Counted from the stretch's first letter, positions 18,894-32,000 are shown. The stretch is 32,000 nt of DNA from Desulfobulbus propionicus DSM 2032 (GCF_000186885.1 NC_014972.1:2040001-2072000); one strand, 5' to 3'. Notes: a model not told the origin generated them from the sequence alone. Numbers and translations: made by a program.

Positions 18894-19655
18894 TCAGTTG
18901 GAGTCGTTCCCGTACTGTCCCTCCAGGTGGGGGCCTGTGGCGTCGTAGATAACAACCCGGTTGCGGCCCAGCATTTTGGCGTGATAGAGGGCTTGGTCCG
19001 CCTGACGGATCAGCTCGCTGGCCTTGCTGTCACGCGAGGGAACCATCGCGGCCACGCCTTGACTGACCGTAAGAATCGGTGCAACCTGCGAGGTCGCATG
19101 GGGAATTTTCAGCTGGTCGATCCGTTGGTGGAAGAGTTCGGCCACCTTGTAGGCCGCTTCGGCGCTGCAATCGGGCAAAAGGCAAATGAATTCCTCGCCC
19201 CCGTAGCGAGCCAGGGAGTCGGAGACGCGCCGCATCCCCTTCTGCAACGCCGTGGCCACTTCGCGCAGGCATTGATCTCCAGCCACATGACCGTAATGGT
19301 CGTTGAATTTCTTGAACTGATCGATGTCGATCATGATCGCAGCCAAGGAACTGTTGGTGCGCTGGCAACGCCGCCACTCGCGATGCAGCTTGTCCTCATG
19401 GTAACGACGGTTGGCAATGCCGGTCAGGCCATCGAGGTTGGTCAGTTTGCGCAACTCCTCGTTGGCCAGTTCAAGACTTTGGTTCGCTTCCTCGACCTTG
19501 GCGATCTGGGCGACCACCAGTCTGGCGGTGATGGCGGCGGCCTCGCGGGAAGCGAGCACTTCCCGGTAGAGAAGCTGATAGGCGGCAAACAGCTCCTCCT
19601 TGCTCAGTCGCGCCAGTTGCTGTTTGTCCAAATGATAGAGATCAAACGAGTGCAT
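18894..19655 (-). CDS. Diguanylate cyclase (GGDEF domain) with coiled-coil N-terminus
   Basis: 'LDGLTGIANRR', 'IDIDQFKKFNDHYGHVAGD', the active-site 'GGEEF' and 'RVSD' (an RxxD I-site five residues upstream of GGEEF) are present. The first ~85 aa are heptad-like, with no recognisable PAS/GAF/REC domain or TM segment. The ATG at 19655 lies inside the 3' end of the protease gene. Confidence 0.9.
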   Translation of the reverse strand: MHSFDLYHLDKQQLARLSKEELFAAYQLLYREVLASREAAAITARLVVAQIAKVEEANQSLELANEELRKLTNLDGLTGIANRRYHEDKLHREWRRCQRTNSSLAAIMIDIDQFKKFNDHYGHVAGDQCLREVATALQKGMRRVSDSLARYGGEEFICLLPDCSAEAAYKVAELFHQRIDQLKIPHATSQVAPILTVSQGVAAMVPSRDSKASELIRQADQALYHAKMLGRNRVVIYDATGPHLEGQYGNDSN

Positions 19656-20070
19656 TGGCAGCTTCCACGGCCATATCCGCAGCCCGTTTGATCGTTTCCG
19701 CCTCCCCTTCCCCTTCGATCCCGATCAGCCATACCTTGGGCAGGGGATCAAGGCCGAGGTGCGGCAGGGTCTTGAGCAGATAGAGCAATCCCCCGGAATG
19801 GGAATACGCTTCGGTCCACACTTCATCGAGCCGCGCCGCATCGAGCCGCACCACCGAACCTGGATCGGCGAAGCCAACAACCCGATCAACCAGCACCATG
19901 ACCTCGCATCCATCGAAAAACGGCAGCAGATCGAGGCCAGCCAGCCCGCCATCGAGCACCTCGAACGAATCGCCAAGGTTTCTGGAGCGCAGCTCGTCGT
20001 GGACCAGATGGCCGACGGCATCGGCCGTCACCAAGCTGTTGCCCACGCAGATGATCCGCCGCCGGTTCAT
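19642..20070 (-). CDS. [NiFe]-hydrogenase maturation endopeptidase (HyaD/HybD/HoxM family)
   Basis: 'RIICVGNSLVTADAVGHLV', 'VLDGGLAGLDLL' and 'VMVLVDRV' follow the GN...DD.G...D.G pattern of hydrogenase proteases. The start has an ATGA overlap with the large-subunit stop. The longer ORF to 20139 is rejected. Confidence 0.8.
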   Translation of the reverse strand: MNRRRIICVGNSLVTADAVGHLVHDELRSRNLGDSFEVLDGGLAGLDLLPFFDGCEVMVLVDRVVGFADPGSVVRLDAARLDEVWTEAYSHSGGLLYLLKTLPHLGLDPLPKVWLIGIEGEGEAETIKRAADMAVEAANALV

Positions 20071-21575
20071 GCGCCGATCCGGATCCGGCCCAGGGAATGT
20101 CCTTGCCGGCCCACCGCATGGACCGAGCAGACCATGCACAGATCAAAACTGCGGACCACATGGCCTACCTCCACGGGATCTTCAGGATTATGCACCGGTG
20201 TACCCACCAGGGCCTCTTCGATGGGACCACGAACACCACGGTCATCGCGGGGCGAGGCGTTCCAGGTGGTCGGCGGAACGATCTGGTAATGGTCGATATA
20301 GCCGCCGTTGAGCTGCACCCAGTGGCCGAGCAGGCCGCGGGGCGCCTGGATCAACCCCAGACCGGAACCGTTGGCAGGAACGCCGGTCGGTTGATAAAAG
20401 GGTTCGGCGGGATCGATTGCCCGCAGGTCGCGTTCCATGGTCATCAGCAGGCGACCGGCGCGAACTATGCGTGCCAATTCCCGGGCCAAGGCAGACGTTC
20501 CGTGGCCGGCGACCAGATCCGTCAGCAAGGGATCACGGCGGGTCAGGGCTTCGGCCAAGGCTCCGGTTTCCGCCGGAGAGCCGTTGTACCGTGGCGCCTT
20601 GCACCAGGAATAGGTTCCGCTTGCGGCTGACTCCTTGGGATGGGTTTCGGACTCGGAGGGATGACCGCCTGAATCGCTGTCTTGATAATGGGCGTACCGC
20701 ACCTCCTCGGCGATGTGTCGCTGATCCAGGACATTCAGGGCATCGCCGTGAAGGACATGACCTGCCATCGATTCCGAAGGCGGGTTGTCCACGGGCAATG
20801 GCGGTCCGGTGATGAACGAGCCATGCCAACCACCGAGGTGCTCCAGGGCAAGGGGAAAGGCGCTGCGCAGAAAAAAGCCGAGCTCGCTTGCTCGATGTTC
20901 TGGCCGTTCCTCAAGCCAGTCCTCCAGTTGGACGCGATTATGCACGGCCGCGAACCGCTCCAGGGAGCAACCGAGCACCTCCTGTTCGTACCAGCGGCGA
21001 AATTCCGCGAGCAGCAACCTGCACTGGCGCAGATCGGCTGCGCTGGGCTGGGAGGTAACGCCGCCGGGAACGATGAACGAGGAGTGAGGCCATTGCCCGC
21101 CAAGGATGGCGATGATTTCCGGCAATTTTTTGGTGGCCAGAATGGTCGCGACCACCGTGCTGCCCTGATAGGGGCGGTACCGCTGGATCATTTCCTGGTA
21201 GAGCGGGTGCCGACCGTACCCTGTTGCGGTGAAATCAGCGGCAAACATCAAGAAAAGATGGCGAAAATCGTTTTGCAGTGTTTCCGCGCCCAAGGCAATG
21301 CGGCGCACAAGCAGGCCGTTGCGGCTGACCGCTGTTCTGGTGATGTCTTCCAGGGCCATGGCCGCGGCCAATAAATGACTGGTGCTGCAGATGCCGCAAA
21401 TCCGAGGGGTGATCACCAGGCCGTCCAGGGAACTGCGGCCGATCAGCATGGTTTCGATCCCCCGGTACATGGTCCCGATCATCCAGGCATCGGTCACCAT
21501 CCCGTCTTCAATGGCGACCTTGACCTCCAGATCCCCTTCAACCCGATTCATTGGCATGCATACTGTTTCTGCCAT
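20067..21575 (-). CDS. [NiFe]-hydrogenase large subunit (cytoplasmic, group 2-like)
   Basis: The N-terminal Ni-ligand motif is 'RICGICSTSH' and the C-terminal motif is 'FDLCMVCSVH', followed by a 16-aa tail (AVGRQGHSLGRIRIGA). The product is 502 aa. A GGAGA RBS lies upstream of the ATG at 21575. Confidence 0.9.
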   Translation of the reverse strand: MAETVCMPMNRVEGDLEVKVAIEDGMVTDAWMIGTMYRGIETMLIGRSSLDGLVITPRICGICSTSHLLAAAMALEDITRTAVSRNGLLVRRIALGAETLQNDFRHLFLMFAADFTATGYGRHPLYQEMIQRYRPYQGSTVVATILATKKLPEIIAILGGQWPHSSFIVPGGVTSQPSAADLRQCRLLLAEFRRWYEQEVLGCSLERFAAVHNRVQLEDWLEERPEHRASELGFFLRSAFPLALEHLGGWHGSFITGPPLPVDNPPSESMAGHVLHGDALNVLDQRHIAEEVRYAHYQDSDSGGHPSESETHPKESAASGTYSWCKAPRYNGSPAETGALAEALTRRDPLLTDLVAGHGTSALARELARIVRAGRLLMTMERDLRAIDPAEPFYQPTGVPANGSGLGLIQAPRGLLGHWVQLNGGYIDHYQIVPPTTWNASPRDDRGVRGPIEEALVGTPVHNPEDPVEVGHVVRSFDLCMVCSVHAVGRQGHSLGRIRIGA

Positions 21576-21593
21576 GCAATCTCCTTCAGCGGT

Positions 21594-22526
21594 TCAGACC
21601 CGTGAACGCCGCTTGATCAACCGCTCGGGTGCGGCCGCGGCCGCCATTCCCTTGTAGGCCAGATAGTGGGCGCGATCCACCCCATCGGGCAATTCCAACG
21701 GCACATCGATGATATTGGGGGTGTGAAAGAAGGGATGGTCCTGAGGGAAATCCGGATCGGTACAGCCAAAGCAGGGAACTCCGGCATTGGTCTTCGAGTT
21801 GCGGTTGTTCCACAGAATTTTGTTGCACGGGGCGTAGGTCAACGGTCCCCGGCATCCCATATGGAAGAACATGCAGCCAGGACCGCCGAAATCGCTGTCT
21901 TCAACCCGATACTCGTGATATTCATTGCGCGTGCAGCCCTGATGGACCAGGATTCCGAACCAGTCTTCCGGCGCTTGATAGCTGTTGAGCGACGGCAACC
22001 GCTCCTCGCAGACCGCGCACAGCGTATCCTTGAGCACCGTGGGATGCACCGGGCAGCCGGGCAGGTTGATGACCGGCCATCCCCTGGCCGAACGAAAGTG
22101 CTCTCCCAGCAGGCCGCCGGGTTGGCGATGGTGGAACTGGAGACCGGTGGCATCGACTTCGCCCAATTTGCCGATACCGCCGAAACACGCGCAGGTGCCG
22201 ACCGCGATCACCGCACCGGCCCTGGCCGCCAGTTCCTCGACAATCAAGGCCTTGGCCTCGCCGCGCAAGGTGTCAAACCCGCCACTCGAAGCAGGACCGG
22301 CGAGAATGAATCCCTCGATCAGCAGGAGATCGAGCGGCTGCTTGCCCTGACGAAAATCAGCCACCAACGTCTCGTACGCGCCCATATTGCCGTGGCTGAA
22401 GGAAGGGTGCCAGAGGGTTATTCGCATCTCGGCGAGCAAAGCGGGCAGGTGCGGTGTTTCCATGCCCAGCAGACTCATGGTGTCGCCCCCGCAGGCGCCG
22501 CACTGCAACCACAAGGCCGTTGGCAT
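21594..22526 (-). CDS. [NiFe]-hydrogenase small subunit, no Tat signal peptide
   Basis: The protein starts directly at 'LWLQCGACGGD', the proximal-cluster CxxC. 'GTCACFGG', 'LPGCPVHP', 'HQGCTRNEYHE', 'GCRGPLTYAPC' and 'GVPCFGC' provide ligands for three FeS clusters. There is no RRxFxK leader and no C-terminal membrane anchor. Confidence 0.9.
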   Translation of the reverse strand: MPTALWLQCGACGGDTMSLLGMETPHLPALLAEMRITLWHPSFSHGNMGAYETLVADFRQGKQPLDLLLIEGFILAGPASSGGFDTLRGEAKALIVEELAARAGAVIAVGTCACFGGIGKLGEVDATGLQFHHRQPGGLLGEHFRSARGWPVINLPGCPVHPTVLKDTLCAVCEERLPSLNSYQAPEDWFGILVHQGCTRNEYHEYRVEDSDFGGPGCMFFHMGCRGPLTYAPCNKILWNNRNSKTNAGVPCFGCTDPDFPQDHPFFHTPNIIDVPLELPDGVDRAHYLAYKGMAAAAAPERLIKRRSRV

Positions 22527-22580
22527 TGAATCCTCCCTCTGGTACGATAAATGGTTTCGTCTCGTTCTTTAGTGAATTTT

Positions 22581-22610
22581 AGTGTATTGCCTTGCAACCA
22601 TTTCTGTCAA
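22581..22610 (-). promoter_or_regulatory. Sigma70-like promoter candidate for the hydrogenase operon (TTGACA-18 nt-TACACT)
   Basis: Read on the minus strand, the -35 TTGACA is at 22610..22605 and the -10 TACACT at 22586..22581. This is about 55 nt upstream of the small-subunit ATG, which has a GGGAGGA RBS. Confidence 0.35.
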
Positions 22611-24031: not shown

Positions 24032-24490
24032 ATGGCATTCATACGATTTGCAGATCGGCCGGCCTTTCGCAATCCCTGGGCCGAATTTGAACGGATCCGC
24101 CAAGGGCTTGATGAACTCTCGCGCTCCTACGCCGACAAAGGTAAAGGGCAAGCCCGGGCCAATGTCTATCCGGCACTTAATATTTACGAAGAAAGCGACC
24201 GGCTGATCGTGACCGCAGAACTGCCCGGGGTCAAGGTCCACGATCTGGAACTGTCTGTCGAAGGTGAAACCCTGACCATTCAAGGCAAACGGGACAGCCG
24301 CCAAAACGACCCTGGCATCTCCTACCACCGCCGCGAGATTGAATCGGGCAGCTTCAGCCGCGCCATTGCCCTGCCGGTAAAAATCGATACCGAGCAGGTG
24401 GGCGCAAAACTCAGCAACGGCATCCTGACCATCACCCTGATGAAGGCCTCCGAGGTCAAACCCCGTCAGATCAAAGTTACCGCCGAATAG
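24032..24490 (+). CDS. Small heat-shock protein (Hsp20/alpha-crystallin family)
   Basis: 'YPALNIYEESDRLIVTAELPGVKVHDLELSVEGETLTIQGKR' and 'GSFSRAIALP..ID...V.AKLSNGILTITL' form the alpha-crystallin domain. Confidence 0.9.
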   Translation: MAFIRFADRPAFRNPWAEFERIRQGLDELSRSYADKGKGQARANVYPALNIYEESDRLIVTAELPGVKVHDLELSVEGETLTIQGKRDSRQNDPGISYHRREIESGSFSRAIALPVKIDTEQVGAKLSNGILTITLMKASEVKPRQIKVTAE

Positions 24491-24503
24491 AGGAGGCAAG
24501 CGC

Positions 24504-24902
24504 ATGACAGAACAGGAATTGAAGATCCAGGAGAAAAAAGCGGCCCAGCATGACGGTGAAACCACCAAGAGCGAAACCTATTTTGCCCCGCACGTCGACA
24601 TCTTCGAAACCGACAAGGAGGTGACCGTCATCGCCGACGTGCCCGGTGTCACCAGCGAGGGACTCGATCTCTCCCTCGAAGACAACGTACTCACCATTCA
24701 GGGCCACCGCCTGCCGCCGCCTCATCATGGACGGCTCATCCTGGAGGAGTATGAGTGCGGCCACTATCTGCGGCGGTTCACCGTGGCGGAAACCATCGAC
24801 CAAAACAACATCGAGGCGTCTCTCGTTGACGGTGTGCTCAGGGTGCGTCTCCCCAAGGCCGGCCCAGCGCAACCGAGAAAGATCGAGGTCAACATAGGTT
24901 GA
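24504..24902 (+). CDS. Small heat-shock protein (Hsp20 family), divergent second copy
   Basis: 'FAPHVDIFETDKEVTVIADVPGVTSEGLDLSLEDNVLTIQGHR' and 'ASLVDGVLRVRLPK' match. A GAGGAGG RBS is present. The gene starts 13 nt after the first hsp20. Confidence 0.85.
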   Translation: MTEQELKIQEKKAAQHDGETTKSETYFAPHVDIFETDKEVTVIADVPGVTSEGLDLSLEDNVLTIQGHRLPPPHHGRLILEEYECGHYLRRFTVAETIDQNNIEASLVDGVLRVRLPKAGPAQPRKIEVNIG

Positions 24903-25779: not shown

Positions 25780-26637
25780 TCAGGAAGCGGTGGCCAACGC
25801 CAGCCAGGTGGCACAGAAGAGCGTCAGGGAAATCAGGCCGTTCATGGAGAAAAAGGACTGACGGATGCGGGACAGGTCTTTGGGCGTGACAATGATATGC
25901 TGATAGAACAGGGCAGCGGCGGTGATAGCCAATCCGCCGTAATACCAGAGGTTGAGCTCCGCCTGCAGACCGGTGAGGGTGAAAAGGCAAAAAGCCAGCA
26001 CATGGAACAACACGGCCACGCGAAAACCGTTGCGGCGGCCAAAGATGGCCGGCATCGAATATAATCCGGCCTCGCGGTCGAAATCGGCGTCGAGGCAGGC
26101 GTAGATGCAATCGAAACCGGCCACCCAGAACAGAACACCGAGCGACAGTATCCAGGGGTATCCTTCCAGGCTGGCGGACACGGCCACCCAGCCGCCGAGC
26201 GGCGAAAAGGCCAGAGCCACCCCGAGCACCACATGGCAGAGCCAGGTGAATCGCTTGGTCAGCGAATAGAAAAGTGTCAATCCCAACGCAAAGGGAGCGA
26301 TCTTGAGCGCCAGGGGGTTGAGCATGAAACAGGCGAAAAAAAACAGCGCGCTGGCCAACACGACCATGCCCCAGGATTCCAGCAGGGTGACCTGGCCGGC
26401 AGGCAGGGCCCTTTGGGCGGTGCGCGGATTGGCGGCGTCAAACCGGCGGTCGACAATGCGGTTGAAGCCCATGGCACTGGTTCGCGCGCCCACCATGGCC
26501 AGGATCACCCACCAGAAGACGGCCGCGTCGGGGACTCCCCGGCCAGCGAGAAAAGCGCCCATGAGGGCAAAGGGCATGGCGAAGACAGTGTGCTTGAATT
26601 TGATCATCTCAAGCAGGACGGCAATTTTGTTCCACAT
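25780..26637 (-). CDS. UbiA-family aromatic prenyltransferase (MqnP-like, menaquinone via futalosine)
   Basis: The protein is polytopic and membrane-embedded. 'ARTSAMGFNRIVDRRFDAANPRT' is the first Asp-rich motif (N..D...D) and 'FDCIYACLDADFD' is the second. The start MWNK at 26637 lies 2 nt after the ubiX-like stop; the ORF extension to 26952 is rejected. Confidence 0.8.
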   Translation of the reverse strand: MWNKIAVLLEMIKFKHTVFAMPFALMGAFLAGRGVPDAAVFWWVILAMVGARTSAMGFNRIVDRRFDAANPRTAQRALPAGQVTLLESWGMVVLASALFFFACFMLNPLALKIAPFALGLTLFYSLTKRFTWLCHVVLGVALAFSPLGGWVAVSASLEGYPWILSLGVLFWVAGFDCIYACLDADFDREAGLYSMPAIFGRRNGFRVAVLFHVLAFCLFTLTGLQAELNLWYYGGLAITAAALFYQHIIVTPKDLSRIRQSFFSMNGLISLTLFCATWLALATAS

Positions 26638-26639
26638 GG

Positions 26640-27212
26640 TCAGATTCCCTGCCAACGGCTCATGGTTGCGGCCGGCACAGCGATCCCGAGAAGATCGCAC
26701 AGACGGGCGGCATAGTTGCGGGCCATTTCGTCCATATCCTTGGGATGGGTATAAAAAGAGGGCATGGGCGGACAGAGGATGGCGCCAGCATCGTGCGCCG
26801 CCAGCATATTGGTCAGATGGGTCCGATTGAGCGGGGTTTCCCGCACGGCCAGCAGCAGGGGGCGCCGCTCCTTGAGGGTGACATCGGCGGCGCGGTGCAC
26901 CAAATTGCCACAGTAGCCGCCGGCAATGGCGGCCAAGCTGCCGACCGTGCACGGCAGGACCACCATGGCATCGTAGAGGGCCGAACCCGAGGCTGGTGGG
27001 GCCGCAAAATCATCCGACGCAAACCAGCGGGAAACCAGCGGCAACTGCTCCGGCGTCCATCCCAGTTCAAAACGCAACACCTTGCGGCCCGATTCCGAGA
27101 TGATGCCATGCACCTCGACCTGTTGCTCCGCCAGCAGTTGCAGAAGTGCCGGTACATAGAGCATGCCGGAGGCGCCGGTGATGGCGAGAATAAGACGCCG
27201 ACAGCCTGCCAT
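26640..27212 (-). CDS. ubiX: UbiX-family flavin prenyltransferase (MqnM-like)
   Basis: 'LILAITGASG', 'VVLPCTVGSLAAIAGG', 'NLVHRAADVTLKERRPLLL' and 'RETPL' match the UbiX/Pad1 family. Confidence 0.85.
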   Translation of the reverse strand: MAGCRRLILAITGASGMLYVPALLQLLAEQQVEVHGIISESGRKVLRFELGWTPEQLPLVSRWFASDDFAAPPASGSALYDAMVVLPCTVGSLAAIAGGYCGNLVHRAADVTLKERRPLLLAVRETPLNRTHLTNMLAAHDAGAILCPPMPSFYTHPKDMDEMARNYAARLCDLLGIAVPAATMSRWQGI

Positions 27213-27931
27213 CAGTCCTTGACCCCGATGTAGATGGACACGATGCCAAAAGTCAGCGGGATGCGCGACACGGTGGCGAATCCCGCTTCACGCATCATGG
27301 CCAGCAGTTGGTCCGGTTCGTAGAAGGCGGCAATCGAGGAAGCCAGATACTGATACGCTTCCTTGTCGCCGGAAATCATCCCGGCGATCGCCGGCAGGAT
27401 GCGATTGAGGTAAAAGGTGTAGATCGGCTTGATGATCGGATTGGTCGGTCGGGAAAATTCAAGAATCAATAGTTTGCCGGAAGGCCTGAGAACGCGGTGC
27501 ATCTCCCGCAACCCCTGCAAGGTCCGAGACAGGTTGCGCACCCCGAAGGCCACGGTGCAACCCCAGAAGGCATCAGAAGGCGCAGGGATGAGTTCGCCAT
27601 CGCCGCAAACCGGAAAGATGCGGGGGGTACGGTCATCATTGGGCAGGGCCTTGGCTCCGGCGCGCAACATGTCCTCGCAAAAATCAACGGCCAGGACCTT
27701 GCGTTGGGCCGCCTGGCGGGTGAGCTCCAGGGACAGGGGCAGGGTCCCGGCGCACAGGTCAAGCACCCATCCCTGGGGAAACTGCCTCAGCAGACGGGTG
27801 GTCCGCCAGCGCCAGTAACGGTCGATTTGCAGGGAAAGCAGCGAGTTGAGCAAATCGTAGCGATGGCTGATCGAAGAGAATTTTTCCCGGACAAATTGTT
27901 TCTTTTCGTCGGGAAGGGTCATCTTTTCCAT
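27212..27931 (-). CDS. ubiE: Demethylmenaquinone/ubiquinone C-methyltransferase (UbiE/MenG family)
   Basis: 'VREKFSSISHRYDLLNSLLSLQIDRYWR', 'VLDLCAGT' (the SAM motif), 'AFGVRNL' and 'VLRPSGKLLILEFS' match. The start MEKM is at 27931. The stop overlaps the ubiX start by 1 nt. Confidence 0.85.
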   Translation of the reverse strand: MEKMTLPDEKKQFVREKFSSISHRYDLLNSLLSLQIDRYWRWRTTRLLRQFPQGWVLDLCAGTLPLSLELTRQAAQRKVLAVDFCEDMLRAGAKALPNDDRTPRIFPVCGDGELIPAPSDAFWGCTVAFGVRNLSRTLQGLREMHRVLRPSGKLLILEFSRPTNPIIKPIYTFYLNRILPAIAGMISGDKEAYQYLASSIAAFYEPDQLLAMMREAGFATVSRIPLTFGIVSIYIGVKD

Positions 27932-27974
27932 GCACTTTCCTTGATAACGAGCGGAGAAAGGGTGCTCATTGTCG

Positions 27975-28799
27975 TTATCTGAATATTTTGAGCGGCAGAG
28001 CGCCGGCCGGTGCCTCGCCCCGGTCAATCAGGTATTGAAAAAACCGCTCGAGGGCCTGGATCTTGATTGGCGTCAGGTCGTGTTCAATGCCCATGAGATA
28101 ACGGGAGCAGGTTTCGCAATCCATGGGGATCCGTCGTGCTACCCGATCGCAGATCTCGGCCATGCGCAAGGCGCCCTGTTGGCGGCAGTCTACCAGGGCC
28201 TGGCGGACTTGCCGGGCCTCTTCGGCCTGATCGGCAAGAAAAGCCTCACGAACCGCGCAAACGCTGAAAACAAAAGGCAGCCCGGTGGTTTTAAACCAGA
28301 TCTCACCGAGATCCAACTGCACGGGATAGCGTTGTTCGGCGTTGAGGCGAAGGGCGTCGTCGCCAATCGCAAGCACGGCGTTGGCCGCGCCCTCCTTGGT
28401 CTGCTCGTTGTACGCATCTCCCACCGTGTAGCGAGGCCGAACGCGGTAAAATTCTTCCAGAATGATCTTGACCAGACGGATCGAGGTGTCCGATTGCCGG
28501 GTAAGCAGCACCCGCTGGCCGTCCAGCGATTCCGGCGGCAGCTCGGAAAACAGGAAAACGCTGCCCACCGGCCCGGTGGCGCTGATCGAGAGATCGGCCA
28601 AAATCTGGTACCGTTCCGGCCGGGCGGCATAGGCATAGGAAGAGACAAATCCCATGTCGATCCCCTCCTCGGCCAGCAGCACGTTCAAGCGACTCGGCTG
28701 CTCCTCGATCACTTGCCAGTGGGTTGGAAAAGACCGTTCCTTCCAAATCTCATAGATGGGAGCAACGTTGATGTAGTTGACCATGCCGATACGCGCCAT
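27975..28799 (-). CDS. mqnA: Chorismate dehydratase MqnA (futalosine pathway)
   Basis: 'MARIGMVNYINVAPIY' is the MqnA-type N-terminus, as opposed to the 'SPCPNDT' of MqnD, and the fold is VitK2-biosynthesis/PBP-like. An alternative start at 28817 (ATGAGTGA) overlaps the upstream stop. Confidence 0.75.
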   Translation of the reverse strand: MARIGMVNYINVAPIYEIWKERSFPTHWQVIEEQPSRLNVLLAEEGIDMGFVSSYAYAARPERYQILADLSISATGPVGSVFLFSELPPESLDGQRVLLTRQSDTSIRLVKIILEEFYRVRPRYTVGDAYNEQTKEGAANAVLAIGDDALRLNAEQRYPVQLDLGEIWFKTTGLPFVFSVCAVREAFLADQAEEARQVRQALVDCRQQGALRMAEICDRVARRIPMDCETCSRYLMGIEHDLTPIKIQALERFFQYLIDRGEAPAGALPLKIFR

Positions 28800-28809
28800 G
28801 TTCCGTGCC

Positions 28810-30033
28810 TCACTCATTGATCCGTGCCAGGCGGATGGCAGGGCCGGCACTCACTAAATATCGACAGACCTGCAACGCCTCGGTTGCCGGCCCAGGCAGC
28901 TGTACGGCCAGCAGATCGGCCTCCTTGCCCGAGTCCAGTGTGCCAAGAAGATCTCCCAGACTAAGGGCTTCGGCCCCACCCCGGGTGGCCATGGCGAAAA
29001 CAATCGTCGGGTCGACGTCCATGAAATTGGCCGCCAGGAGAGCCATCTCCCGCCACAGGGAAACCTCCGGGTTACTGGCCAAGCTGTCCGTGCCCAAGGC
29101 CGGCAAAATCCCTCTGTCCAGATACTGGCGCAACGGAGCGGTGCCCACGCCAAGGAATTGGTTGCTGCCTGGACAGAGGCAAACCTTGGCCCCTTCTCCT
29201 GCCAGGATATCGATCTCCTCGCCGGAGACATGCACCCCGTGGATACAGAGCGTATGCTCATCGATCAAACCAAGATCGTACAGGTATTCAACCGTGCCGC
29301 CTCTGCCCCTGGGGACAAAGGTGCCGTCCCAGAACCCGCGTTCACGAATGAAGTCCACCATCTCTCCCCTGCCTTCACGGAGCATCTCGCCTTCCGCGGC
29401 GGGCTCGGCGGCATGGATGGGAAAAATCTGGCCGTGCGAGGTTGCTCGTGCCTTGAGGGCCTGCAAAAGACGCGGATGGGTGGAGTACGGCGCATGGCCC
29501 GAACACAAGACTTCCTCCGGCTCGCTCCCCAGCCGCTGCAAGTTCTTCTCCAGGGTCCGCTCGGCCATACCCAGGTATTCCTTGAACGGCAACAAACGAC
29601 CGGGAAAGCTGTCGGCCATCTCACGGCCAAGGGCGGTGTTGCCGATATCGGCAAGGACACTGACCCCGCTGCGATACTGCTGCTCGGCTGTTTGGGCGGC
29701 GGCGTGCTGGGCCTGTTCGCCGGTGGCGCCCAATCGGTCACGGCACTGCAGCAACCGACTGATCCAGCCGGTAAAACTTGCCGGTCGGGACTCGCTCAAC
29801 TCGAGCAGATGCGACAATTCAAGATGGATATGGGCATTGATCAGGGCTGGTGTCAGGGCACTGGCGGGATGATCGACGATCTCGGCATGAGGATACAGTT
29901 GACGCAACCGGGGCAACGCCTCGACCGCGATGATTTTTCCCCCGGAAACACCGACACCACCATCGGCAATCATCGGCCGACTGACCGGAACCACCCAGGG
30001 CGCGCTGTGGATGCGGATCGGTGCGGCACCCAT
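28810..30033 (-). CDS. Amidohydrolase-superfamily deaminase (candidate aminodeoxyfutalosine deaminase)
   Basis: The metal-binding 'LINAHIHLELS' (HxH), 'HAAE', 'CIHGVH' and 'LGTDS' match cytosine/guanine/adenosine-deaminase-like amidohydrolases. The gene is directly abutted (TAGATG) to mqnC. Confidence 0.7.
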   Translation of the reverse strand: MGAAPIRIHSAPWVVPVSRPMIADGGVGVSGGKIIAVEALPRLRQLYPHAEIVDHPASALTPALINAHIHLELSHLLELSESRPASFTGWISRLLQCRDRLGATGEQAQHAAAQTAEQQYRSGVSVLADIGNTALGREMADSFPGRLLPFKEYLGMAERTLEKNLQRLGSEPEEVLCSGHAPYSTHPRLLQALKARATSHGQIFPIHAAEPAAEGEMLREGRGEMVDFIRERGFWDGTFVPRGRGGTVEYLYDLGLIDEHTLCIHGVHVSGEEIDILAGEGAKVCLCPGSNQFLGVGTAPLRQYLDRGILPALGTDSLASNPEVSLWREMALLAANFMDVDPTIVFAMATRGGAEALSLGDLLGTLDSGKEADLLAVQLPGPATEALQVCRYLVSAGPAIRLARINE

Positions 30034-31095
30034 CTAGCAAACCGGGGTATAATCCATCAACCGCTGCTGCGGCTCAAAGCCGGCATCGCGGACCAATCGC
30101 CTAATCTCCTCTTCTGAAAGGCGAAAATGGACGCCGGCCGCGGCCACCACATTTTCCTCGATCATGGTCGAGCCGAAGTCGTTGGCGCCAAAAAAGAGGG
30201 AAAGCTGGGCGATCTTCGGTCCTTGCGTTACCCAAGAGGCTTGAATGTTGGCGATATTGTCGAGGAAGATACGGCTCAAGGCTAGCATGCGCAGATAGCT
30301 GACCGCAGTGGTCTTCTCGATGCGGCGGGCCGCAGCCAATGGAGTGTGGTCGGGTTGAAAGGGCCAGGGAATGAAGGCGGTGAACCCACCGGTGCGGTCC
30401 TGGAGGTCGCGGACCCGCTGCAGGTGCTCCAGCCGCTCTTCCATGGTTTCGATGTGGCCGAACATCATGGTGGCCGTGGTTCGCAAGCCCTGGCGATGCG
30501 CTTGTTCCATGATCCCGATCCACTGGTCGGCGCTGCATTTTTTGGGCGCCAACTCCTGCCTGACCCGGTCGCACAGAATCTCGGCGCCGCCGCCGGGGAT
30601 GGAATCAAGACCGGCAGCGATCAACCGCTCAAGGACCGTGGCGATTGGCAACCCGGACAGTTGGGCGAAATGGTGGATCTCGGGGGGGGAAAAACCGTGG
30701 ACATGGATGCCGGTGGTTTTGATGAACCGCAGCATTTCCTCGTAAAACTCCAGCGGCTTGTCCGGATGCAATCCGCCCTGCAATAAAATTTGCGTGCCGC
30801 CGAGAGCCTGGGTCTCGTGTATCTTGTCAGCCAATTGCTCTCGCGTCAGCACCTCGCCGTGCGGGTCGTCCGGAGCCTTGAAAAAGGCACAGAACTTACA
30901 GGCCGAGATACAGACGTCGGTATAGTTGATATTGCGGTCAATCACATAGGTGACCACCGGCCGCGGATGGAGTCGGCGGCGCACACCATCGGCGAGCATG
31001 CCGAGCTGGTGCAGGTCAGCGTCACGCGTCAAACGGAGGAATGCCTCCCCTTCGATACGCTCCCCGGCTTCTATCTTGGCAATGAGGTTCCGCAT
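30034..31095 (-). CDS. mqnC: Cyclic dehypoxanthinyl futalosine synthase MqnC-like (radical SAM)
   Basis: 'NINYTDVCISACKFCAF' carries CxxxCxxC. 'TATMMFGHIET', 'FIPWPFQP' and 'SWVTQG' are features I associate with MqnC rather than MqnE. The MqnC/MqnE assignment needs HMM confirmation. Confidence 0.7.
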   Translation of the reverse strand: MRNLIAKIEAGERIEGEAFLRLTRDADLHQLGMLADGVRRRLHPRPVVTYVIDRNINYTDVCISACKFCAFFKAPDDPHGEVLTREQLADKIHETQALGGTQILLQGGLHPDKPLEFYEEMLRFIKTTGIHVHGFSPPEIHHFAQLSGLPIATVLERLIAAGLDSIPGGGAEILCDRVRQELAPKKCSADQWIGIMEQAHRQGLRTTATMMFGHIETMEERLEHLQRVRDLQDRTGGFTAFIPWPFQPDHTPLAAARRIEKTTAVSYLRMLALSRIFLDNIANIQASWVTQGPKIAQLSLFFGANDFGSTMIEENVVAAAGVHFRLSEEEIRRLVRDAGFEPQQRLMDYTPVC

Positions 31096-31100
31096 GGCGC

Positions 31101-32000
31101 TCAGAAGGTGGCAAGAACGTTATAGAGTGTGTCGCGCTGCACCGGTTGGCGACCGGCCTCGTGGATCAGCCGGATCAGGGTTTTGTGCCCCAGAGCCTGT
31201 TCGGTTTCCGCCCCGGCCATGTGGGTGATCACTTCTTCCTTGACCGTGCCGTCCATGTCGTCGGCGCCAAAGGCAAGGGCCACTTGAGCCAGCTTGGGAC
31301 CGACCATCACCCAATAGGCTTTGATGTGCGGAAAGTTGTCGAGCATCAGCCGACTGACCGCGATATTTTTCAGATCGTTGATGCCGCTGGTATTGGAATG
31401 CTCGGCCATCTCAGTGTTTTTTGGATGAAAGGCCAAGGGAATGAAGGCAAGGAAACCACCGGTTTCATCCTGGGTGTGACGCAGGGCATCAAGATGTTCC
31501 AGTCGTTCATCGATGGACTCGATATGGCCATACAGCATAGTGGCATTGGTGCGCAGTCCCAACCGGTGAGCGGTCCGCGCCACCTCAAGCCACCCTTCCC
31601 CGGAAAGCTTTCTCTCGCAGGTCAGGCGGCGGATACGCGGGCTGAACACTTCAGCCCCGCCGCCGGGCATTGACCCAAGGCCGGCCGCCATCAGCTCCTC
31701 AAGGGTCGTATCGACCGGTTTGCCGGCCAGCTGAGCCAGGTGGTGGATCTCCACACAGGTGAAAGCCTGGATGTGTACCTCGGGGCGAACGTCCTTGATA
31801 CCGCGCAACAAATCGAGATAATAGGAAAAAGGCAGATCGGGATGAATGCCGCCAACCACATGGATCTCGGTGATCGGTTCATCGAGCCGCTGCCGGACCT
31901 TCTCCTTGACCTCCTCGATGCTCATCTCATAGGCAAGGGCATGCCCCTTTTCCTTGCCAAAGGCGCAGAATTTACAGAGATTGGTGCAAATATTGGAATA
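31101..32000 (-). CDS. mqnE: Aminofutalosine synthase MqnE-like (radical SAM), N-terminus outside window
   Basis: The frame is open to base 32000. 'NICTNLCKFCAF' carries CxxxCxxC. 'NATMLYGHIES', 'FIPLAFHP' and 'YWVMVG' are features I associate with MqnE. Confidence 0.7.
   Translation of the reverse strand, partial: YSNICTNLCKFCAFGKEKGHALAYEMSIEEVKEKVRQRLDEPITEIHVVGGIHPDLPFSYYLDLLRGIKDVRPEVHIQAFTCVEIHHLAQLAGKPVDTTLEELMAAGLGSMPGGGAEVFSPRIRRLTCERKLSGEGWLEVARTAHRLGLRTNATMLYGHIESIDERLEHLDALRHTQDETGGFLAFIPLAFHPKNTEMAEHSNTSGINDLKNIAVSRLMLDNFPHIKAYWVMVGPKLAQVALAFGADDMDGTVKEEVITHMAGAETEQALGHKTLIRLIHEAGRQPVQRDTLYNVLATF

Follow-up and report, generated by a model that had tools for sequence, protein, structure and literature searches.

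The characterised sensors nearest to the locus described here are the group 2b [NiFe]-hydrogenases, HoxBC of Cupriavidus necator and HupUV, cytoplasmic enzymes which respond to H2 and are encoded beside their transducers, the histidine kinases HoxJ and HupT. We know of no settled account of how the H2 signal travels from such a hydrogenase to its transducer, even for HoxBC-HoxJ. Group 2c, a class linked to diguanylate cyclases (DGC), was reportedly published as a genomic prediction in 2016 by Greening et al. in ISME J. The basic idea of a hydrogenase which converts H2 into a cyclic di-GMP (c-di-GMP) signal is already published as a prediction and is not new. The locus in question is a four-gene operon on the minus strand of a 32,000-nucleotide stretch of the Desulfobulbus propionicus DSM 2032 genome (NC_014972.1:2040001-2072000, hereafter the window). 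An earlier reading made from this sequence alone, the original prediction, took the operon for a candidate H2-to-c-di-GMP module. The group 2 placement of its hydrogenase and the clade-wide linkage to signalling proteins support this candidate reading.

We hold with moderate confidence that the [NiFe]-hydrogenase of the operon, a cytoplasmic enzyme with three clusters, serves to sense H2 and not to convert energy, and that it signals directly to the co-translated cyclase. More tentatively, we propose that a helix of about 50 residues in the cyclase may be a dedicated module coupling the hydrogenase to interchangeable outputs: hybrid kinases, PAS-GGDEF proteins and bare GGDEF proteins. The Desulfobulbus operon is probably the simplest known form of the predicted H2 sensor. 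The sensory role is supported by the tight coupling of the genes and by the absence of an electron acceptor gene from the operon and from 10 kb on either side of it. Sequence comparisons also argue for a sensor: the hydrogenase is placed in group 2 beside a GGDEF-EAL-linked clade and has Ile and Met in its gas channel, the cyclase helix is conserved and specific to transducers, the C-terminal tail of the small subunit is conserved, and the module is kept in different neighbourhoods.

The operon begins with the genes for the hydrogenase small subunit (SSU, 22526-21594, 310 aa) and large subunit (LSU, 21575-20067, 502 aa), followed by a HycI/HybD-type maturation endopeptidase gene (20070-19642, 142 aa) and, as the last gene, by one coding for a GGDEF protein, the diguanylate cyclase (19655-18894, 253 aa). 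Open reading frames (ORFs) and Pfam/NCBIfam families agree with this order, as originally proposed, and the junctions given for it proved exact: an 18-nt gap between the SSU stop and the LSU start (21593-21576), an ATGA overlap of the LSU and protease genes (20070-20067) and a 14-nt overlap of the protease and cyclase genes (19655-19642). SSU carries the Oxidored_q6 (PF01058) and NiFe_hyd_SSU_C (PF14720) families, LSU belongs to NiFeSe_Hases (PF00374, E 1.6e-74), and the protease to HycI (PF01750 and TIGR00072, 62 bits at a cut-off of 47). The genes are already annotated in the D. propionicus reference genome: SSU and the cyclase match ADW17938.1 and ADW17935.1 exactly, and LSU shares a 90% cluster with ADW17937.1. 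Gene content and Pfam analysis of the neighbours bear out the claim that the operon has no electron-accepting partner, since genes for cytochrome b, diaphorase, ferredoxin and heterodisulfide reductase, as well as hyp genes, are lacking both in the operon and within 10 kb on either side. No HoxJ/HupT-type histidine kinase gene was found in the same region.

On sequence grounds, LSU clearly belongs to [NiFe] group 2. Its identity across the group 2 references is 38-42%, namely 39-40% to 2b (HoxC, HupV), 40-41% to the 2a Huc type and 41.6% to the LSU of Ideonella dechloratans, which has the canonical 2c arrangement with a bifunctional diguanylate cyclase/phosphodiesterase (DGC/PDE) following, compared with 29% to 1d (HoxG, HupL). 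The closest solved structure in a Protein Data Bank (PDB) search is 2a Huc with 354 bits, while any group 1 enzyme scores at most 217 bits. A neighbour-joining tree (100 bootstraps) was built from 80 genome-derived relatives and references. In it, 2a forms a separate clade (100%) that excludes the window, the 2b clade has 100% support and the Ideonella-type, PAS-GGDEF-EAL-linked clade 99%. The window LSU lies inside a 72-member clade (83%), whose node with the Ideonella-type clade has 65% support, or 83% when a Sulfurimonas locus (L084) is added. Within the 72-member clade, the window groups with loci L005-L008 at 100% bootstrap. The original prediction named firm clustering with groups 1, 3 or 4 as the result that would count against it; on the strength of the identities, the PDB scores and the tree, such a placement was rejected.

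All four Ni-Fe cysteines are kept in LSU, within the L1 motif RICGICSTSH and the L2 motif SFDLCMVCSVH. The latter matches the published 2c consensus SFDxCLVCTVH (PMC4853749) in eight of ten specified positions, differing by L to M and T to S, and most relatives in the clade have SFDPCLVC[TA]VH. Only in the five-member clade of the window is Leu (L479, 20133-20135) found where the DPC L2 motif usually has Pro, or else Ala or Ser. Gas-channel positions are occupied by Ile and Met, compared with Ile and Phe in HoxC (I62, F110) and Val and Leu in HoxG and HupL.

HydDB describes group 2c as 'Diguanylate cyclase-linked (putative)', in line with the original prediction's account of this group. A canonical 2c system, found on an Ideonella dechloratans plasmid (NZ_CP088082), is like the window in being a cytosolic group 2 enzyme without a twin-arginine translocation (Tat) leader, in its gene order of SSU, LSU, protease and a final c-di-GMP enzyme (there the bifunctional one), in an L2 motif close to the consensus and in the proposed role of coupling H2 to c-di-GMP. 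The window differs from it by belonging to the separate 72-member clade, most of which is linked to hybrid kinases, and LSU identity is only 38-42%. Its partner is a 253-aa cyclase with just a helix and without PAS or EAL domains, whereas the 2c partners are GGDEF-EAL proteins of about 500-980 aa, most of them with PAS. The description of the operon as a 2c-type module holds for its cytosolic location and its linkage to a cyclase, but since the clade is mostly linked to histidine kinases, the division into 2b and 2c by output is blurred. The label itself can mislead in literature searches: a review (PMC11023054, Chem Sci 2024, section 6) assigns HoxBC/HupUV-type sensors to 'group 2c', while in HydDB they are 2b. 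This looks like a labelling slip, not a characterisation of 2c.

Like the window, HoxBC-HoxJ and HupUV-HupT pair a cytoplasmic group 2 hydrogenase with a transducer encoded beside it. Their transducer also has an N-terminal helical segment, the first gas-channel residue is likewise Ile, and LSU identity is about 39%. Many relatives of the window's enzyme resemble them further in being linked to kinases, and some in lacking the LSU tail and the protease. Unlike 2b, the window has a cyclase as output instead of a kinase, its LSU carries a 16-aa extension accompanied by a protease while in HoxC and HupV nothing follows the L2 histidine (0-aa tail), its L1 motif ends in His while that of 2b (RxCGICSVSQ) ends in Gln, and its SSU lacks the extra C-terminal extension of about 15 residues present in HoxB and HupU.

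To compare what follows the hydrogenase genes, the genes downstream of LSU were surveyed in 80 loci. Every relative in the 72-member clade with enough downstream sequence (69 out of 69) has a signalling protein directly after LSU or the protease. In L005-L008 and in the Geobacteraceae locus L042, the protease gene is followed at once by a gene for a GGDEF protein of 234-285 aa. In nearly all the rest of the clade this position is taken by a hybrid histidine kinase with the architecture (PAS)-HisKA-HATPase-REC-REC-(Hpt). Among 55 loci with enough downstream sequence, there are 26 in which a GGDEF gene lies on the same strand no more than 6 kb away: 20 encode REC-GGDEF regulators of 300-390 aa located after the kinase, five are of the short type and one is a PAS-GGDEF gene. 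Other loci have single-domain receivers. Transducers of the sister clade are PAS-GGDEF-EAL or GGDEF-EAL proteins. A transducer that consistently follows the hydrogenase while its output varies is strong comparative evidence, at the level of sequence, for a sensory role. The arrangement in which a hydrogenase is followed by a phosphorelay and a c-di-GMP enzyme is not captured by the names 2b and 2c, and naming by output is a rough guide.

LSU identity to the kinase-linked relatives (L009-L075; e.g., L050:9982-12822, L041:9593-12637, L019:9954-12014) is 43-52%. In three loci (L028:12963-15613, L053:277-3512, L047:1067-4152) the sensor-type genes have, within a few kb of them, a second and distantly related [NiFe]-hydrogenase set of 26-38% identity, which in one case includes a protease of its own; this recalls 2b sensors encoded beside the uptake hydrogenase they regulate.

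The complete four-gene module is also present in eight further contigs (L005-L008, L042, L091, L093, L095), with LSU identity down to 48% and with different flanking genes, a recurrence that speaks against a chance arrangement. Clustered at 90% identity, the full-length orthologues of the cyclase fall into about 30 groups; they measure 234-281 aa, and proteins of Desulfobulbus spp. are among them. All three orthologues that were looked up are encoded in SSU-LSU-protease-cyclase modules, and the flanks of two of these differ from those in the window: both are preceded by RtcB and exonuclease genes, and one is followed by an ABC transporter.

The cyclase consists of two parts. Its GGDEF catalytic domain covers residues 73-233 (18957-19439, minus strand) and matches PF00990 with E 1e-52 and 178.6 bits at a cut-off of 23.8. 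The GGEEF active site is intact, and so are the DID...N...GD substrate and metal motifs and, five residues upstream of GGEEF, the inhibitory site RxxD (RVSD). Both the catalytic and the RxxD motifs are invariant in 27 orthologues, so the cyclase is, judging by its motifs, apparently active. The preceding part, residues 12-72 (19440-19622, minus strand), is an N-terminal helical module defined by homology to transducer N-termini and corresponds to no Pfam family. No Pfam domain was found ahead of GGDEF, and the protein has no sensor or input domain. AlphaFold2, supplied with the 27 orthologues, predicts residues 19-72 as one helix of 54 residues running into the GGDEF domain, with a predicted local distance difference test score (pLDDT) of about 86-93 in the helix and a mean of 88.8. 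Residues 12-70 lie nearly all within this helix. The first 70 residues are well conserved in orthologues, including the one from L042 with 42% overall identity, and the helix contains residues invariant across the 27 orthologues. Its consensus, EELLEENELLREEIRVAREAAEITAELVVEQFEKTEE, has neither Cys nor His.

A fold search with the cyclase found the WspR stalk with GGDEF (43-48% identity), a GCN4-WspR fusion, the DgcB coiled coil and the SiaD-SiaC complex (7E6G). SiaD of Pseudomonas aeruginosa, WspR and DgcB are built like the window cyclase: about 250 aa, a long N-terminal helix joined to GGDEF and no sensor domain. The protein matches the NCBIfam SiaD model NF038266 (E 1.8e-48) with 165.1 bits, below the family cut-off of 290, and it was not accepted as a SiaD orthologue. 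SiaD is activated by a separate protein, SiaC, which binds its stalk. By analogy, our model puts the hydrogenase in the place of SiaC, with the difference that the partner would be a metalloenzyme and not a small phospho-regulated protein.

A hidden Markov model (HMM) of the helix was built from residues 12-70 of six orthologues. It matches the extreme N-termini (approximately residues 3-65) of the hybrid kinases in related loci with E values from 1.7e-17 to about 1e-7. Iterated once, the model finds a single match in each of 69 loci out of the 72 in the clade, the window counted. These matches are always on the hydrogenase strand and start 6-233 nt after LSU or, when the protease gene intervenes, 424-660 nt after it; three are located further out. 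Two of the clade loci without a match offer under 600 nt of sequence downstream. The helix is borne by 54 kinases and six GGDEF proteins, and the remaining nine bearers are cut by contig ends. As a specificity control, 62 other kinase, REC or GGDEF ORFs of these loci were scanned, and none of them contains the helix. The match to the Sulfurimonas GGDEF-EAL protein is marginal (E 2.8e-5).

Judging by its sequence, SSU is cytoplasmic. As was originally claimed, it has no Tat leader: the ORF cannot start upstream of 22526, and in an alignment with HoxK, HoxB, Huc-type small subunits and family relatives its first residue falls on the start of mature HoxK, past the 43-aa leader of HoxK with its RRxFLK motif. 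The claimed lack of a membrane anchor holds as well, as the chain runs on for 20 residues past the conserved AHYLAYKG motif and has no hydrophobic stretch there. Cyclase-linked and kinase-linked relatives conserve the C-terminal tail, AHYLAYKGMAAAAAPERL, to the same degree, which fits a docking partner common to both.

The following mechanism would account for these features. The hydrogenase would be matured by its own protease, which would remove the 16-residue tail of LSU. The cyclase would dock on the hydrogenase with its helix of about 54 residues, and the same helix would serve as a coiled-coil stalk that sets the mutual orientation of the two GGDEF domains in the dimer. Binding and oxidation of H2 would change the redox state or conformation of the hydrogenase, and this change would be passed to the packing of the stalk and would alter c-di-GMP synthesis; both the docking and the direction of the signal are what we infer. 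Product inhibition would act through the RxxD site. In its logic the system would resemble stalk cyclases that are switched on by a partner protein, as SiaD is by SiaC, and the hydrogenase would take the partner's role. Compared with related bacteria, in which the hydrogenase would act through a hybrid kinase on a REC-GGDEF protein, the relay would be shortened. In the Desulfobulbus clade it may have arisen when the N-terminal helix of the kinase was joined directly to GGDEF, bypassing the PAS-kinase-REC-Hpt-REC part.

Several observations weigh against this reading. Neither HMM comparison nor hhalign detects similarity between the helix and the N-terminus of HoxJ, and with the transducer N-termini of the Ideonella type, i.e., canonical 2c, the hhalign probability is an indecisive 37%. 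A phmmer search with the 75-aa N-terminal segment against 1.8 billion representatives returned five matches at E<=1e-3, the search being insensitive; four of these proteins are short (131-259 aa), and three of the four are also among the cyclase homologues. The absence of the helix outside hydrogenase loci applies within the 80 fetched loci. Having no Cys or His, the helix cannot itself be redox-active, and it could be a mere dimerisation coiled coil inherited together with the operon. Features of a catalytic enzyme are retained in LSU, i.e., the C-terminal extension, the dedicated protease and the L1 histidine, which is Gln in 2b. Finally, no experimental characterisation of any 2c-type hydrogenase was found in the searchable literature, which agrees with what the original prediction had stated about this group.

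The retained catalytic features raise the question whether the hydrogenase could be a 2a-like cytoplasmic enzyme, working in H2 uptake or as a redox valve with an acceptor encoded elsewhere, while the cyclase is merely co-expressed and coupled to it through transcription only. We regard this as unlikely. After the L2 histidine, LSU continues for 16 residues, AVGRQGHSLGRIRIGA (20070-20117, minus strand); members of the window clade conserve this extension, which the protease of the adjacent gene presumably cleaves off. Together with the protease and the L1 histidine, such a tail is what catalytic enzymes have; every Fe-S ligand position is filled, the distal His included, and identity to 2a (about 40%) equals that to 2b. 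The 2a enzymes, such as Huc of Mycolicibacterium smegmatis (7UTD) and cyanobacterial HupSL, are also cytosolic and share the RICGIC of L1 and a C-terminal extension with a protease. However, they differ from the window in other details of L1 and L2 and by Asn at a proximal-cluster position, and their loci contain accessory genes of the NifU, NHL-repeat or DUF1641 types and no transducer, unlike the neighbours in the window. Moreover, no acceptor gene is located in or near the operon, and the cyclase has no other input domain. All 69 testable members of the clade have a helix-bearing transducer after the hydrogenase genes, and none has a redox partner at that position.

Relatives without the LSU extension are also without the protease gene. 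In two kinase-linked subclades (L041, L043, L044, L054 and L062; L033, L052 and L061) LSU ends exactly at the L2 histidine, and the protease gene is found in none of the eight loci with a tailless LSU, as in the proven 2b sensors. Where the LSU tail is at least 9 aa long, the protease is detectable in 31 of 47 loci. This suggests that C-terminal processing was lost repeatedly in sensory lineages.

According to another explanation, the complex senses redox state, O2 or CO, and the hydrogenase scaffold with its Fe-S relay serves the cyclase as a redox antenna. SSU has the ligands for three Fe-S clusters, including the distal His, but in place of the second Cys of the proximal cluster the window and every family member examined, the Ideonella type included, have Asp (D15 in CGGD, 22482-22484); 2b enzymes have Cys there and 2a enzymes Asn. 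The proximal cluster may therefore be Asp-ligated or altered otherwise. This replacement throughout the family and the gas channel narrowed by Ile and Met are compatible with an antenna. So is a Rieske-type domain in one transducer: the PAS-GGDEF-EAL protein encoded after the 2c-type hydrogenase of a Neptuniibacter sp. (L082:9960-12911, complete genome NZ_CP180556) has a Rieske [2Fe-2S] match at its N-terminus (residues 35-80, E 9.4e-7), which hints that some transducers may accept electrons from the hydrogenase. On the other hand, the four Ni-Fe cysteines, the protease and the cleavable tail are all kept, an expense that makes little sense unless the NiFe site works. Of the characterised sensors, the nearest, those of 2b, answer to H2. 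Overall, we find the antenna quite improbable.

Descent from a kinase-linked ancestor is suggested by the tree, in which the window clade is nested among kinase-linked clades. The operon could then be the relic of a phosphorelay which lost its kinase and receiver, leaving a constitutive, unregulated cyclase whose level follows transcription of the operon. It is consistent with this that the next-best database matches of the cyclase, past its own orthologues, are REC-GGDEF proteins. Yet the helix derives from the kinase N-terminus and not from a REC-GGDEF linker, so the cyclase appears to be a specific fusion rather than a product of simple decay. In addition, the protein has been conserved down to 42% identity in about 30 sequence clusters and in varied genomic contexts, with invariant helix residues in the 27 orthologues, and we consider a relic hardly probable.

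Least probable of all is the reverse flow, in which it is the hydrogenase whose assembly, maturation or activity depends on the cyclase or on c-di-GMP: the overlap of the cyclase and protease genes and a protease-GGDEF fusion (P0153) could be cited for it, but the cyclase has no input domain to time such an action, the relatives hold signal emitters at this position (sensor kinases with receiver and Hpt output domains), and P0153, coming from a 1.6-kb metagenomic contig, is a possible frameshift artefact. P0153 (389 aa, JGI metagenome, 1567-bp contig) combines a HycI domain (residues 22-125) with the helix and GGDEF (residues 211-371), is 52% identical to the window cyclase and may be either a natural protease-cyclase fusion or the result of a frameshift across overlapping genes.

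Upstream of SSU, a consensus scan found a sigma-70-like promoter, TTGACA-18-TACACT (22581-22610, minus strand, 10 out of 12 positions), as a pattern match only, and a ribosome-binding site GGGAGGA (22531-22537, minus strand) can be read from the sequence, ending 4 nt before the SSU ATG. A separate promoter for the cyclase was also considered. The sole candidate, CTGCCA-18-TATCAT (19632-19661, minus strand, 9 out of 12), is weak and overlies the start codon of the cyclase. It was not counted as evidence: the transcript start would fall inside the gene, so independent expression of the cyclase from this site is unlikely. Scanning of the locus for terminators gave no more sites than were found in shuffled sequence.

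The neighbours of the operon are a divergently oriented S4-domain gene on its upstream side and a radical-SAM gene that converges on it from downstream. The 10 kb on either side contain housekeeping genes only (futalosine/menaquinone synthesis, HSP20, purine synthesis, MiaA/MiaB, RecJ, LeuA). According to Pfam matches on the identical contig L001, the futalosine/menaquinone cluster upstream of the operon (25780-32000, minus strand) includes a radical-SAM gene of the CofH_C type, VitK2_biosynth, UbiE, a UbiX-like flavoprotein, UbiA and an amidohydrolase, and an HSP20 gene pair is located nearer to the operon (24032-24902, plus strand). The context of HSP20, SAICAR synthase and S4 genes is shared with D. 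alkaliphilus (L095) and is not found in more distant carriers of the module.

Relative to the searchable literature, three points appear to be new: a clade of such hydrogenases linked mainly to hybrid kinases, a dedicated N-terminal helix common to all transducers of this clade, and the Desulfobulbus-type locus as its minimal form with the helix fused directly to GGDEF. The locus reduces the signalling problem to a hydrogenase heterodimer and a 253-residue cyclase with one conserved non-catalytic helix. Lying in a cultured, genome-sequenced sulfate reducer, it offers a compact testable model of H2 signal transmission. If the helix is the coupling element, it would provide a sequence marker for H2-responsive signalling proteins in genomes and would explain how outputs were swapped in evolution between a kinase relay and a direct cyclase. 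It would also link H2, the central currency of anaerobic communities, to behaviours under c-di-GMP control, for example attachment or aggregation. In that case the Desulfobulbus clade would possess a minimal three-protein switch from H2 to c-di-GMP, with the hydrogenase doing to the cyclase stalk what SiaC does to SiaD.

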